From contig CAYQJH010000002.1 in NCBI GenBank assembly GCA_964417755.1, positions 2,693 through 66,692 on the forward strand: a stretch of 64,000 bases of DNA. Reading direction: 5' to 3'. The translations under genes were made by a program, and so were the position numbers. Origin of the DNA: an uncultured Planctomycetaceae bacterium. Lineage in GTDB: Bacteria > Planctomycetota > Phycisphaerae > SM23-33. Positions 12,533-18,303 of the stretch are shown piece by piece (position 1 is the first letter of the stretch; each line of letters opens with the position of its first letter). The notes beneath the pieces were generated by a model. That model made no database searches. It saw only the letters and a program-made list of their open reading frames with translations, and was not told the origin of the DNA.

Positions 12533-13666
12533 ATGGCGGAAGTATTGCTCAAAGGCGTTACCAAGGAGTTTCCCGGCGGCGTCCAGGCTGTCAAAAGCAT
12601 GGACCTCAAGATCGCCGATTCGGAATTCATCGTGCTGGTCGGGCCGAGCGGCTGCGGCAAGACGACCACGCTGCGAATGGTGGCCGGCCTGGAAGAAATC
12701 AGCAGCGGCACCATCAGCATCGGCGACCGCATCGTCAATGACGTGCCCCCCAAGGACCGCGATATCGCCATGGTCTTCCAGAACTACGCCCTCTACCCGC
12801 ACATGAGCGTGTACAAGAACATGGCCTTTGCGCTTAAGCTCCGCAAGTACCCCAAGAAGGAGATCGACCAGCGCGTCCGCGAGGCGGCCAAGATCCTCGG
12901 CATCGAGGCCCTGCTGGATCGCAAGCCCAAGGCCCTTTCGGGCGGGCAGAGACAGCGCGTAGCCGTCGGGCGGGCGATTGTCCGCAAGCCCAAGGCGTTC
13001 CTCTTCGACGAGCCGCTGTCGAACCTCGACGCCAAGCTCCGCGTTGAGACTCGCGCGGAACTGAAGCGCCTGCATCATCAGCTTAGAACAACCACCATCT
13101 ACGTCACGCACGACCAGGAAGAGGCCATGACCCTGGGCGATCGCATCGTGGTGATGAAGGATGGCATCATGCAGCAGTGCGGCAGCCCGCTGGAGGTCTA
13201 CCACGCGCCATCTAACCAGTTCGTGGCTGAGTTCGTCGGCACGCCGCCGATGAATTTCTTCAAGGGCAGCCTGGAGGCGGCCAATGGCGGACTGTATTTC
13301 GGCGAAGGCACGGCCCGGCTGAGGCTGCCGGAGGATAAGGCCCAGGTCCTGCGCGGCAAGAACGTTGTCGGCAAAGAGGTCTGGCTGGGTGTTCGTCCCG
13401 AGGCCATCGCCGTCGTCAGCGAAGGCCGATTCGCCGGGCAAGACAACTCGCTGCCGGTTCAACTATCAGTGATCGAACCCCTCGGCGAGAAGATGGACCT
13501 GTTTACTTCGACGGCCAAGACTCCGCACATTGTTGCCCGCGTGGACGCCCAGCGAGGCCTGAAGCCCAACATGGCCGTCACGCTGCACCTGGACATGCGA
13601 AAGGTCCACGTTTTCGAGCCGTCCAAGGGCGGAGCGAATTTGACGGTGGAAGTCGCAACGTTGTAA
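12533..13666 (+). CDS. Sugar ABC transporter ATP-binding protein (MalK/MsmX/UgpC family), orphan ATPase
   Basis: Walker [18 protein letters not shown] signature, and a C-terminal MalK-type regulatory/TOBE-like domain. No adjacent permease genes. Confidence 0.85.
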
Positions 13667-13840
13667 TGACGAATGACGAAGCCCGAATGATGGGCCCTGC
13701 TCTGCGAAGCCCGCTTCGCAGGGCGAAGCAGAGTCAATGGCGAATGCCTGGAAATGACGAAGTGAACTTGTTCGTCACTCGTCATTCAGGTATTGATTCG
13801 ACATTCTGGTTTCGTCATTCGTCATTCTTTAGCAGAAATA
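13667..13840. repeat. Cluster of GAATG(A/G)CGAA / TTCGTCATTC half-sites around a hairpin
   Basis: At least four copies in both orientations. Related clusters at 1141-1170 and 35512-35561. Confidence 0.6.
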
Positions 13841-13858: not shown

Positions 13859-15748
13859 ATGAACAATGAGAACATCCCCGTCCGCATCTATTCCGATTCA
13901 CAAGCAGCATCCAGGGCGGTGGCAGAGGCCATCGCTGAACTGATTCGCGCCCGCCAGGCAGCCGGCAAGACGGTGGTGCTGGGCCTGGCAACCGGCCATA
14001 CGCCGGTCAATGTTTACCGCGAACTGATCCGCATGCATCGCCAGGAGAAGCTGGACTTCTCCAACGTCATTACGTTCAACCTGGACGAATATTGGCCCAT
14101 AGCGCACAACGCATTCCAGGCCTACCACGTCTGGATGCATGAGAATTTCTTCAAGCACGTAAACATCCCGGCCGCCAATATCCACATGCCATCAGGCGAG
14201 GTTGCAGCCAAGGACGTCGAGGCCTCGTGCCGGGCGTACGACCAGGCCATCGCCAAGGCCGGAGGGATCGACTTCCAGATCCTGGGCATCGGGCGAAGCG
14301 GGCATGTTGGCTTCAACGAGCCCGGCTCGCCATACGACAGCGCGACCCGCCGCGTCCACCTGGACGCCCTGACCCGCAAGGACGCCGCGAGCGATTTCTT
14401 CGGCGAAGACAACGTGCCGGAGATGGCCATCACAATGGGCCTGGGCACCATTCTGCAAGCCAGGCGGATCGTCCTGCTGGCCTTCGGCGAGCACAAGGCC
14501 CCGATCATCCGGCGGGCGGTCGAGGGTGAAGTCTCGATCAATGTGCCAGCCAGCTTCCTGCAGGAACATCCCGGCGCAACGATGTATCTCGACTGTGCAG
14601 CTGCCGCCGACCTGACCCGCGTGGCAACCCCTTGGCTGCTGGGGCCATGCCAGTGGGACGACATGCTGCAACGGCAGGCTGTCATCTGGCTGGCAAAGAA
14701 ACTCGCCAAGCCCATCCTCAAGCTCACCGACGAAGACTACAACGAGAACGGCCTGAGCGAGCTGACGCACGCATGCGGCGGGGCGTACCAGCTGAACATC
14801 CGGATATTCCGCCGGATGATGGAGACCATCACCGGCTGGCCAGGCGGAAAGAAGAAGAAATACCGCGTGCTGGTCTTCAGCCCCCACCCGGACGACGACG
14901 TGATTTGCATGGCCGGCACGATGACAAGGCTGGTCGAGCAGGGCCACCAGGTGCATGCCGCCTACATGGTCAGCGGGTATCTCAGCGTGTTCGACCACGA
15001 CGTCTCGCGATTCGCGGAATTTGTCCGTGAGTTCAATCGCATCTTCGGGCTGACACCGGACCAGACCGCAGCCATCGAGGATCATATAGAGAAGTTCCTG
15101 CGACAGAAGAGGCCGGGCGATATCGACTCCGCCGAGGTTCAGCAGATCAAGGCGCTGATTCGCCGCACGGAGGCCGTCGCGGCGGCGAAGTATTGCGGCC
15201 TGAAGGAAGAGCACTGCCACTTCCTGGACATGCCTTTCTACAACACGGGCAAGGTCGAGAAGCTCTCGATTGCCGAGGAAGATATCGCTGCCGTCGGCCG
15301 TAGTCTCGATGCGGTGCGCCCGGAGATCATCTTTGCCGCCGGCGACATGTCCGACCCGCACGGCACGCACCGCCTGTGCCTTGATGCCGCCCTGGCGGCC
15401 ATCGAACGGTACGCAAAGGCCGGCAACCCTAGGCCGGAGGTTTGGCTGTATCGCGGGGCCTGGCAGGAATGGCCCGGCGAGCAGATAGAGATGGCTGTGC
15501 CGCTCTCGCCTGACGAACTGCGGCGCAAACGCTACGCAATCTTTCGCCATCAGAGCCAGAAGGACCGGGCGATGTTCCCGGGCGCATACGACACGCGTGA
15601 ATTCTGGCAGCGGGCTGAAGACCGCAACATGGGCACAGCCAAGCTCTTCGACCAGATGGGCCTGCCGGAATACCACGCCCTGGAAGCATTCGCCCGGCAT
15701 CCGGTCAGACCATCGGCGCACGTGGCGTCGCTGATTACCCCTGCATAA
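13859..15748 (+). CDS. nagB: Glucosamine-6-phosphate deaminase (NagB) fused to a PIG-L/LmbE-like deacetylase domain
   Basis: N-terminal domain LGLATGHTP...FNLDEYW is NagB-like. C-terminal domain VLVFSPHPDDDVIC is the LmbE/PIG-L zinc-deacetylase motif. ATG at 13859. Confidence 0.8.
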   Translation: MNNENIPVRIYSDSQAASRAVAEAIAELIRARQAAGKTVVLGLATGHTPVNVYRELIRMHRQEKLDFSNVITFNLDEYWPIAHNAFQAYHVWMHENFFKHVNIPAANIHMPSGEVAAKDVEASCRAYDQAIAKAGGIDFQILGIGRSGHVGFNEPGSPYDSATRRVHLDALTRKDAASDFFGEDNVPEMAITMGLGTILQARRIVLLAFGEHKAPIIRRAVEGEVSINVPASFLQEHPGATMYLDCAAAADLTRVATPWLLGPCQWDDMLQRQAVIWLAKKLAKPILKLTDEDYNENGLSELTHACGGAYQLNIRIFRRMMETITGWPGGKKKKYRVLVFSPHPDDDVICMAGTMTRLVEQGHQVHAAYMVSGYLSVFDHDVSRFAEFVREFNRIFGLTPDQTAAIEDHIEKFLRQKRPGDIDSAEVQQIKALIRRTEAVAAAKYCGLKEEHCHFLDMPFYNTGKVEKLSIAEEDIAAVGRSLDAVRPEIIFAAGDMSDPHGTHRLCLDAALAAIERYAKAGNPRPEVWLYRGAWQEWPGEQIEMAVPLSPDELRRKRYAIFRHQSQKDRAMFPGAYDTREFWQRAEDRNMGTAKLFDQMGLPEYHALEAFARHPVRPSAHVASLITPA

Positions 15749-16055: not shown

Positions 16056-16120
16056 ATTGTTTTGGTTGCTCTTGTCGGCCAGCTTGCACTAATATCTGCT
16101 CCGAAAGGATAAGAACGATT

Positions 16121-16930
16121 ATGGACAAAGCTGTAATTCTGGCGCGTGGCCTGGGCACGCGGATGCGTAAGCAGGATGGCTCGGCCAACTTGACGCAGCA
16201 GCAGGCAGCCATCGCCGAGACTGGCGTCAAGGCCCTCATTCCCGTCGCCGGCGGGACGTTCCTGGACTATGTGCTGGCTGCCCTGGCCGAGGCCGGCTAT
16301 AGCCAGGTCTGCCTGGTGATTGGCCCCGAGCACGTCGAGACGCGCGATTACTACAGCCGCCTGCAAACTAGCCGGCTTAAGATCAGCTTTGCCATCCAGG
16401 AAAAGCCGCTGGGCACCGCCGACGCGGTGGCGGCCGCAGCGGGCTTCACCGGCAAGGACCACTTCCTGGTGATCAACTCCGACAATTACTATCCGCCGGT
16501 GGCACTGAAGGGCCTGCGACAGCTTAAGGGCCCGGGCCTGGCTGGGTTCGAGAAGAACGGAATGCTGGCCGGCAGCAACATCCCCGCCGACCGGATCGCC
16601 AAGTTCGCCGTCGTCCAAGTCAATGACAGCGGCAACATGGTCCGCATAATTGAAAAGCCCGATCCCGCTGTGCTGGCCGGTATGAAGGAGCCGGTCCTGG
16701 TCAGCATGAACTGCTGGCGGTTCAACGATTCGATCTACGAAGCCTGCCGAAACATCAAGCCCTCCCCACGCAACGAACTCGAGATCACCGACGCCGTGCA
16801 GTACACCATCGACAAGCTCGGCCAGAAATACGCCATCGTCGATGTCAAGGCGCCAGTTCTGGATCTCTCCAGCCGCAGCGACGTCGAGGCCGTCGTCGCC
16901 AAACTCAACGGCCTGGAGATCAGACTGTGA
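16121..16930 (+). CDS. Sugar-1-phosphate nucleotidyltransferase (GlmU-N/RmlA-like NTP-transferase)
   Basis: ILARGLGTRM matches the G-x-G-T-R nucleotide-binding motif, with a ~15-aa insert after it. RBS AAAGGATAAG. The ORF 5' extension is repeat DNA. Confidence 0.7.
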   Translation: MDKAVILARGLGTRMRKQDGSANLTQQQAAIAETGVKALIPVAGGTFLDYVLAALAEAGYSQVCLVIGPEHVETRDYYSRLQTSRLKISFAIQEKPLGTADAVAAAAGFTGKDHFLVINSDNYYPPVALKGLRQLKGPGLAGFEKNGMLAGSNIPADRIAKFAVVQVNDSGNMVRIIEKPDPAVLAGMKEPVLVSMNCWRFNDSIYEACRNIKPSPRNELEITDAVQYTIDKLGQKYAIVDVKAPVLDLSSRSDVEAVVAKLNGLEIRL

Positions 16931-18303
16931 TGCAGTTACAGGAGTTGTCCGACCGTAAGTCCACCACGCAGCGACTTTCCGCCGGCGGTCTCAGTGCGGC
17001 GGCCGCCGCCGACAAGGCACAACTATTTTGTCAGTGCGCCGCTGTGGCGACGAAGCATGGCCTGAGCGACTCCGCCGGCGTGCATGCTCTTTATGTGCCA
17101 GGCCGCATCGAGGTGCTCGGCAAGCACACAGACTACGCCGGCGGGCGCAGCATGCTCACCGTGCCGGAAAAGGGCTTCTGCATCATCGTCGCGCCGCGCC
17201 AGGACAAGACGGTGCGGATGATCCGCGCTGATGGCCTGGACGCACCGGCCATCTACGCGGTCGATCCCGACCTGACGCCGATCATGGGGCACTGGTCGAA
17301 TTACCCGATGACGGTCGCGCGGCGCGTGGCCCGCAATTTCGCGGCCCCGCTGCACGGGGCGGACATTATCTTCCTGAGCGATTTGCCTCTGGCGGCAGGC
17401 ATGAGCAGTTCCAGCGCGCTGGTTATCGTTTCCTTCCTGGCCCTTTCTGCCGCCAACGATCTGCCCGCACGGCCGGAGTACCAGGCCAATATCCGCAGCA
17501 TCGAAGACCTGGCGGGCTATCTCGGCTGCAACGAGAACGGCCAGAGCTTCGGCCCGCTGGTTGGCGACAAGGGCGTGGGCACCTTCGGCGGAAGTGAGGA
17601 CCACACAGCCATCCTCACCTGCCGCAACGGCATGCTCAACCAGTATTCATACTGTCCGGTGAAGTTCGAGCGGCGGATCGCTCTGCCGGAGGGCTATGTC
17701 TTCGCCATCGCCTCCAGCGGCGTGGAGGCAGAGAAGACCGGCCAGGCCCGCGAGAAATACAACCGGGCATCGCTGCTCAGCCGGGCGGTCGTCGAAACAT
17801 GGAACAAGGCCACCGGGCGAAGCGAGCCCCACATGGCCGCCGCCAGCCAAAGCAGCCCCGACGCGCCTGCTCGCATGCGAGAAATCCCCCTCAGAGCCAA
17901 GCACGATCACTTCCAGCCGGCTGAAATGCTCAGCCGGTTCGATCATTTCTATGGCGAGAGCGCCGAGATCATTCCCGCGGCCGGCGATGCCCTTTCACGC
18001 GGCGACATGGTGGAATTCGGCCGGCATGTCTGGCGTTCGCAGGAGGCGGGAACAAGGCTCCTGGGCAACCAGATACCCGAGACGGTCTTTCTGGCCAAGG
18101 CAGCGTGCGACAATGGCGCGGCGGCTGCGTCGGCCTTCGGCGCTGGTTTCGGCGGAGCGGTCTGGGCGCTGGTCGAGCGAAACGATGCGGAGAGTTTGCT
18201 GAAAGCATGGGAAGCAGCCTATGCCAAGGCATTCCCCGCCCCAGCTGGCAAGGCGGTGTACTTCGTCACCGAAGCCGGCCCCGCGGCGTTCGAGTTGAAG
18301 TGA
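16930..18303 (+). CDS. GHMP-family sugar-1-kinase (galactokinase-like)
   Basis: PGRIEVLGKHTDYAGG (GalK-like motif 1), PLAAGMSSSSALVIV (motif 2) and GAGFGG (motif 3). Its start overlaps the stop of the upstream gene (GTGATG). Confidence 0.75.
   Translation: MQLQELSDRKSTTQRLSAGGLSAAAAADKAQLFCQCAAVATKHGLSDSAGVHALYVPGRIEVLGKHTDYAGGRSMLTVPEKGFCIIVAPRQDKTVRMIRADGLDAPAIYAVDPDLTPIMGHWSNYPMTVARRVARNFAAPLHGADIIFLSDLPLAAGMSSSSALVIVSFLALSAANDLPARPEYQANIRSIEDLAGYLGCNENGQSFGPLVGDKGVGTFGGSEDHTAILTCRNGMLNQYSYCPVKFERRIALPEGYVFAIASSGVEAEKTGQAREKYNRASLLSRAVVETWNKATGRSEPHMAAASQSSPDAPARMREIPLRAKHDHFQPAEMLSRFDHFYGESAEIIPAAGDALSRGDMVEFGRHVWRSQEAGTRLLGNQIPETVFLAKAACDNGAAAASAFGAGFGGAVWALVERNDAESLLKAWEAAYAKAFPAPAGKAVYFVTEAGPAAFELK

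Follow-up and report, generated by a model that had tools for sequence, protein, structure and literature searches.

Long NagB in a Phycisphaerae genome: a glucosamine-6-phosphate deaminase fused to an LmbE-like domain as a possible bifunctional enzyme of amino-sugar catabolism

What might an LmbE/PIG-L domain do when it is fused to a glucosamine-6-phosphate deaminase? The question is raised by a gene on the forward strand (positions 13859-15748) of the window, the 64,000-nucleotide stretch of DNA from an uncultured Planctomycetaceae bacterium that was analyzed here. The gene is a complete, intact open reading frame that could start at 13793 (TTG) or 13859 (ATG), and the 629-residue product of the ATG start is 100% identical to a database protein (P0001), and NCBI already contains this protein. 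The fusion proposed in the first-pass annotation is real since the domain-boundary HMM check that it had suggested places both Pfam domains above their gathering scores: Glucosamine_iso at residues 13-240 (E 4.5e-25) and PIG-L (PF02585) at residues 338-514 (E 3.1e-18, 67 bits vs. a gathering score of 28.2, profile positions 1-128 of 129). The N-terminal NagB (glucosamine-6-phosphate deaminase/isomerase) domain, which spans residues 1-255 (13859-14623, forward strand), displays a NagB fold, and the C-terminal domain displays an LmbE Rossmann-like fold. The ~380 residues originally assigned to the latter do contain it, but they consist of a helical inter-domain linker of ~80 residues (256-335; 14624-14863, forward strand) followed by an LmbE/PIG-L-fold metallohydrolase domain of ~295 residues (336-629; 14864-15745, forward strand). 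The linker is formed in the AF2 secondary structure by helices 268-282, 291-295, 300-306 and 309-323, with a pLDDT >90. It is kept in the consensus of the long-NagB family and is also found in apparent stand-alone C-terminal modules (P0131, P0160 and P0186), which begin at the equivalent of residue ~272.

A chance open reading frame or a mis-fused gene can be ruled out because a family HMM matches the protein over its full length. This is NCBIfam NF002557/PRK02122 ("glucosamine-6-phosphate deaminase-like protein"), which scores 927.4 bits (cut-off, 384) and runs end to end, with residues 3-613 on profile positions 26-649 of 653. The match to TIGR00502 (nagB) exceeds its trusted cut-off by a narrow margin (249.8 vs. 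236.9 bits), and the named LmbE equivalogs all fall below theirs (BshB1, 32.9 vs. 182.5; BshB2, 19.8 vs. 195; Mca, 15.7 vs. 277). The same architecture, Glucosamine_iso then PIG-L, is common to all 120 homologs listed, and homologs number in the thousands in Planctomycetota, Bacteroidota and Gemmatimonadota. A long version of nagB, found in protists as well, was already described by Andersson et al. in 2006 (PMC1484493); it has the same two-domain build and the same conserved C-terminal extension, with no architectural difference from the window protein. The latter is an ordinary member of a catalogued, widespread family, to which BT_0258 of Bacteroides thetaiotaomicron also appears to belong; the fusion was already known and represents no new entity. 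Long NagB forms had been expected in Bacteroidota, where they do occur, and their spread is far wider, encompassing Planctomycetota, Gemmatimonadota and several protists. Two candidates for a characterized fusion were rejected: Amuc_1822 of Akkermansia is a short, 33-kDa NagB, while the paper on Gln6Pi of Entamoeba histolytica offers just a 37-kDa band. The first-pass view that the function of the second domain is not established agrees with the literature searched, in which we found no paper on this function, no biochemical data on any long-NagB C-terminal domain and no paper treating LmbE together with glucosamine-6-phosphate.

Both active sites are intact in the window protein. The catalytic residues of E. 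coli NagB are Asp72, His143 and Glu148, as established in the NagB literature. They align with D76 (14084-14086), H149 (14303-14305) and E154 (14318-14320), all on the forward strand, which bears out the deaminase motifs noted in the N-terminal part, and 119 of 120 close homologs share this catalytic Asp/His/Glu set. Conversion of glucosamine-6-phosphate (GlcN-6-P) to fructose-6-phosphate (Fru-6-P) and ammonia by the NagB domain is strongly supported by these sequence comparisons. When compared with monomeric and hexameric NagB proteins, namely those of B. subtilis (2bkv) and E. coli (1dea) and human GNPDA1 (1ne7), the window protein has 370 residues more. The equivalent of E. coli D141 is a Ser, where B. 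subtilis NagB has an Asn, and Lys160 of the NagB allosteric site is not conserved.

As for the LmbE domain, the HXDD metal-binding and general-base motif defined for these enzymes (PMC4101496) corresponds to H343-P-D345-D346 (14885-14896, forward strand), predicted to be the first zinc ligand (H343), the general base (D345) and the second zinc ligand (D346). It is part of the HPDDD motif at residues 343-347 (14885-14899) that had been picked out on first reading. A second motif, DPHGTH (residues 499-504), includes the HxxH motif H501-G-T-H504 (15359-15370, forward strand), in which H504 is predicted to act as the third zinc ligand and completes the HXD1D2-plus-His motif of the LmbE superfamily. 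In a family-profile alignment, H504 falls on the second His of the HPDH motif in the diacetylchitobiose deacetylase of Pyrococcus horikoshii (Ph-Dac), a residue that we take to be the counterpart of His151 in the Thermococcus kodakarensis enzyme. In this related deacetylase, His151 is the third zinc ligand (PMC4101496). Loss of the His/Asp ligands had been named as the outcome that would speak against the annotation; H343, D346 and H504 are all present. With every catalytic residue in place, a pseudo-enzyme is ruled out. Among 47 aligned homologs, H343 and D345 are each conserved in 45, D346 in all 47 and H504 in 44, while metal ligands and general base are kept in ~98% of close homologs. Of 120 close homologs, 119 have all eight catalytic positions intact, as do 75 of 77 genome loci, which suggests that both active sites are under selection.

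The LmbE domain of the window protein nevertheless has features of its own. The spacing between the second and third ligands (D346 to H504) is 158 residues, outside the 97-148 residues of characterized LmbE enzymes (PMC4101496), a range that is descriptive and not strictly defining. This is due to a family-specific two-helix insertion at ~379-416, which stretches the ligand spacing relative to the LmbE-like deacetylases BshB/BC1534, Dac, MshB and PIG-L; also in contrast to these enzymes, the window domain is part of a fusion with NagB and has a helical linker in front of it. In the alignment with Dac, R435 is matched to the first Arg of the IRRKE stretch, and this Arg is conserved; we take the Dac residue to be the one that binds GlcNAc in Dac and MshB, which would favor a GlcNAc-type substrate.

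Conservation is looser in divergent lineages. Among 41 representatives, 17 have kept the LmbE site and lost the NagB catalytic residues, and three show the reverse, so the two activities are not obligatorily coupled. Three proteins (P0180, P0233 and P0164) have lost the LmbE metal ligands and retained the domain. Two others with Bacteroides-like N termini (P0133 and P0191) have non-catalytic residues at the positions of NagB D72 and H143, whereas both sites are preserved in the window protein.

The explanation that we favor, tentatively and at somewhat less than an even chance, is that long NagB is a cytoplasmic bifunctional enzyme of amino-sugar catabolism, in which the LmbE domain deacetylates and the NagB domain deaminates. 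We infer a deacetylase activity for the LmbE domain, its substrate and a coupling between the two sites as follows. The C-terminal domain would hold a catalytic divalent metal via H343, D346 and H504, with D345 acting as general base, and would convert an N-acetylhexosamine phosphate, most likely GlcNAc-6-P, to GlcN-6-P and acetate. The NagB domain, using D76, H149 and E154, would then ring-open, isomerize and deaminate GlcN-6-P to Fru-6-P and ammonia. Deacetylation of GlcNAc-6-P is usually catalyzed by NagA, an unrelated amidohydrolase. The proposed reaction and its place in the pathway, directly before NagB, are those of NagA, but fold and metal site are unrelated, and the LmbE domain would be a functional analogue only; Pfam finds no Amidohydro match in the window protein, so nothing marks it as a NagA homolog. 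We know of no characterized LmbE enzyme that acts on a sugar phosphate. In favor of a GlcNAc-type substrate, every LmbE-like enzyme that had been characterized by 2014 acts on a compound containing GlcNAc (PMC4101496).

Support for this bifunctional enzyme is circumstantial and comes from the absence of NagA nearby, from units of a ROK kinase and long NagB, and from amino-sugar neighbors. A tblastn search with E. coli NagA, a query validated against 1ymy at 856 bits, gave a best E value of 0.65 in the whole window and 1.16 Mb around 87 long-NagB loci, which covers flanks of 8-9 kb and is silent on the rest of these genomes. The NagA motif expression HL[FY]NAM gave no match or spurious matches only. 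In Bacteroidota, long NagB directly follows the gene for a ROK sugar kinase in two-gene units at four loci (L007, L008, L015 and L037); if the LmbE domain is a deacetylase, kinase and long NagB together would make up a full route from GlcNAc to Fru-6-P. Apart from the few loci with a nucleotidyltransferase or GHMP kinase (see below), long NagB is adjoined by genes for ROK kinases, GH3 enzymes or SusC/D pairs, or by none with a link to sugars. The amino-sugar and cell-wall neighbors in Gemmatimonadota are GH3, Amidohydro_3, a TonB receptor and a hydrolase of the beta-lactamase family; Saprospiraceae have SusC/D and LacI together with an LD-carboxypeptidase, and close Phycisphaerae relatives have GH123 and a GH109-like gene. 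Against the bifunctional enzyme stand the 158-residue spacing, the uncoupled loss of either site and the coexistence of NagA with long NagB in at least some organisms, because of which the LmbE domain cannot be a universal NagA replacement. Three NagA genes are present in B. thetaiotaomicron, where knockdown of the GlcNAc-pathway genes, BT_0258 included, proved neutral (PMC13634575). In favor of the bifunctional enzyme, BT_0258 was induced in the same study of mucin utilization, in a pattern that, according to the authors, mirrors published GlcNAc induction (PMC13634575). A Planctomycetota isolate has also been reported with both nagA and nagB.

An alternative that we consider unlikely, albeit the strongest of those weighed, is that the LmbE domain deacetylates unphosphorylated GlcNAc or chitobiose, like archaeal Dac, and that a separate kinase phosphorylates the resulting glucosamine before the fused NagB domain deaminates it. 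The kinase could be the adjacent ROK kinase of Bacteroidota, and the fusion would then link step 1 to step 3 of a chitin pathway of the archaeal type, whereas fusions usually unite consecutive steps. Moreover, strong sequence similarity to Dac is limited to ~50 residues that surround the metal motif, and there is no specific affinity to Dac because BshB, TT1542 and LnmX are structurally as near to the window LmbE domain.

In the window, upstream of long NagB lies a gene for a MalK/MsmK-type sugar ABC-transporter ATPase (12533-13666, forward strand; Pfam ABC_tran, OB_MalK and TOBE_2), which occupies the same position in the closest relatives (L081 and L082). The sugar-1-kinase/pyrophosphorylase pair noted in the first-pass annotation is indeed present downstream. 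Its first gene (16115-16930, forward strand; Pfam NTP_transferase) encodes a sugar-1-phosphate nucleotidyltransferase of the RmlA or archaeal GlmU N-domain type, with an NCBIfam match to Arch_glmU (1.7e-29) below cut-off and PDB matches to RmlA-type enzymes. The second (16927-18303, forward strand; Pfam GHMP_kinases_N, GHMP_kinases_C and GalKase_gal_bdg), which overlaps the stop of the first by 4 nucleotides, encodes a divergent 458-residue GHMP sugar-1-kinase of the GalK family whose PDB matches are galactokinases and a GalNAc kinase. Its specificity cannot be read from sequence because it scores 92 bits with TIGR00131 (galK), well under the cut-off of 226. A scan of the 10-20 kb portion of the window with Rfam gave no match at E up to 0.1, and promoter and terminator scans stayed at chance level. 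In the explanation that we favor, the MalK-type ATPase, long NagB and the nucleotidyltransferase/GalK-like kinase pair of this Phycisphaerae lineage would form a module for uptake, salvage and catabolism of an N-acetylhexosamine.

For the Phycisphaerae clade, one could also imagine a different route, in which the GalK-like kinase makes an N-acetylhexosamine-1-phosphate that the LmbE domain deacetylates, after which GlmM would turn GlcN-1-P into GlcN-6-P for NagB. This would be a new Leloir-like GalNAc/GlcNAc route, without 6-kinase or NagA, consisting of a glycosidase (GH123 or GH109), 1-kinase, LmbE, GlmM and NagB, and we judge it improbable. GlcNAc-Ins, GlcNAc-PI and GlcNAc-malate are alpha-linked. 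The LmbE substrates GlcNAc-Ins and GlcNAc-PI are GlcNAc glycosides (PMC4101496), in keeping with such a route. Families known for GalNAc-releasing glycosidases also occur in the same gene strings of close Phycisphaerae relatives: L082 has a GH123 gene, and L085 has one that matches the C-terminal domain of GH109. In a conserved order, long NagB is followed by the nucleotidyltransferase and then by the GHMP kinase in the window and likewise in L003, L081 and L082; the pair is reordered in L040 (Gemmatimonadota), while L085 shows just the kinase and L083 just the nucleotidyltransferase. Yet these four loci with both genes (L003, L040, L081 and L082) are the only ones among 87 related loci; outside close relatives in Phycisphaerae, the pair is seen at a single locus, in Gemmatimonadota, and >90% of the long-NagB loci examined lack it, the close relatives L084, L086 and L087 among them. 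The illegible specificity of the kinase also counts against this route, as does a 367-nucleotide gap, containing a 34-nucleotide perfect inverted repeat, that divides long NagB from the nucleotidyltransferase/kinase unit. The same distribution bears on the earlier proposal that the fusion channels N-acetylated amino-sugar phosphates: channeling is plausible, and the pair does adjoin the fusion in the window, but with four of 87 loci its tie to the pair is weakly supported.

It is equally improbable, in our estimate, that the LmbE domain is a non-enzymatic module for ligand sensing or oligomerization that, for example, binds GlcNAc-6-P and stands in for the allosteric site of hexameric NagB. 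GlcNAc-6-P allosterically activates classic NagB, according to background cited in PMC5902328, the three proteins without LmbE metal ligands keep the domain, and the AF2 model of the fusion (pTM 0.87) suggests a rigid two-domain unit. However, the near-universal retention of metal ligands and general base in close homologs argues against such a module, and persistence of the LmbE site where NagB catalysis is lost is hard to square with mere regulation of NagB. Least probable of all is that the LmbE fold performs a hydratase or amidase reaction, or deacetylates a non-hexosamine, unrelated to the NagB step, considering that the fusion is stably maintained in several bacterial phyla and, per the 2006 paper, in protists, that the counterpart of the Arg in the IRRKE stretch of Dac is conserved, and that amino-sugar neighborhoods predominate.

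If the LmbE domain of long NagB is a deacetylase of GlcNAc-6-P, or of another N-acetylhexosamine phosphate, thousands of genes labeled "glucosamine-6-phosphate deaminase" would encode two pathway steps. Metabolic reconstructions of how the amino sugars of chitin, mucin and peptidoglycan are turned over would be affected in Planctomycetota, Bacteroidota (gut Bacteroides included), Gemmatimonadota and several protists: where NagA is absent, they could mistake the pathway for incomplete, and they could also credit deaminase activity to members with a degenerate NagB site. The value of long NagB lies in its being a widespread, uncharacterized protein that is open to a cheap, well-defined experiment.

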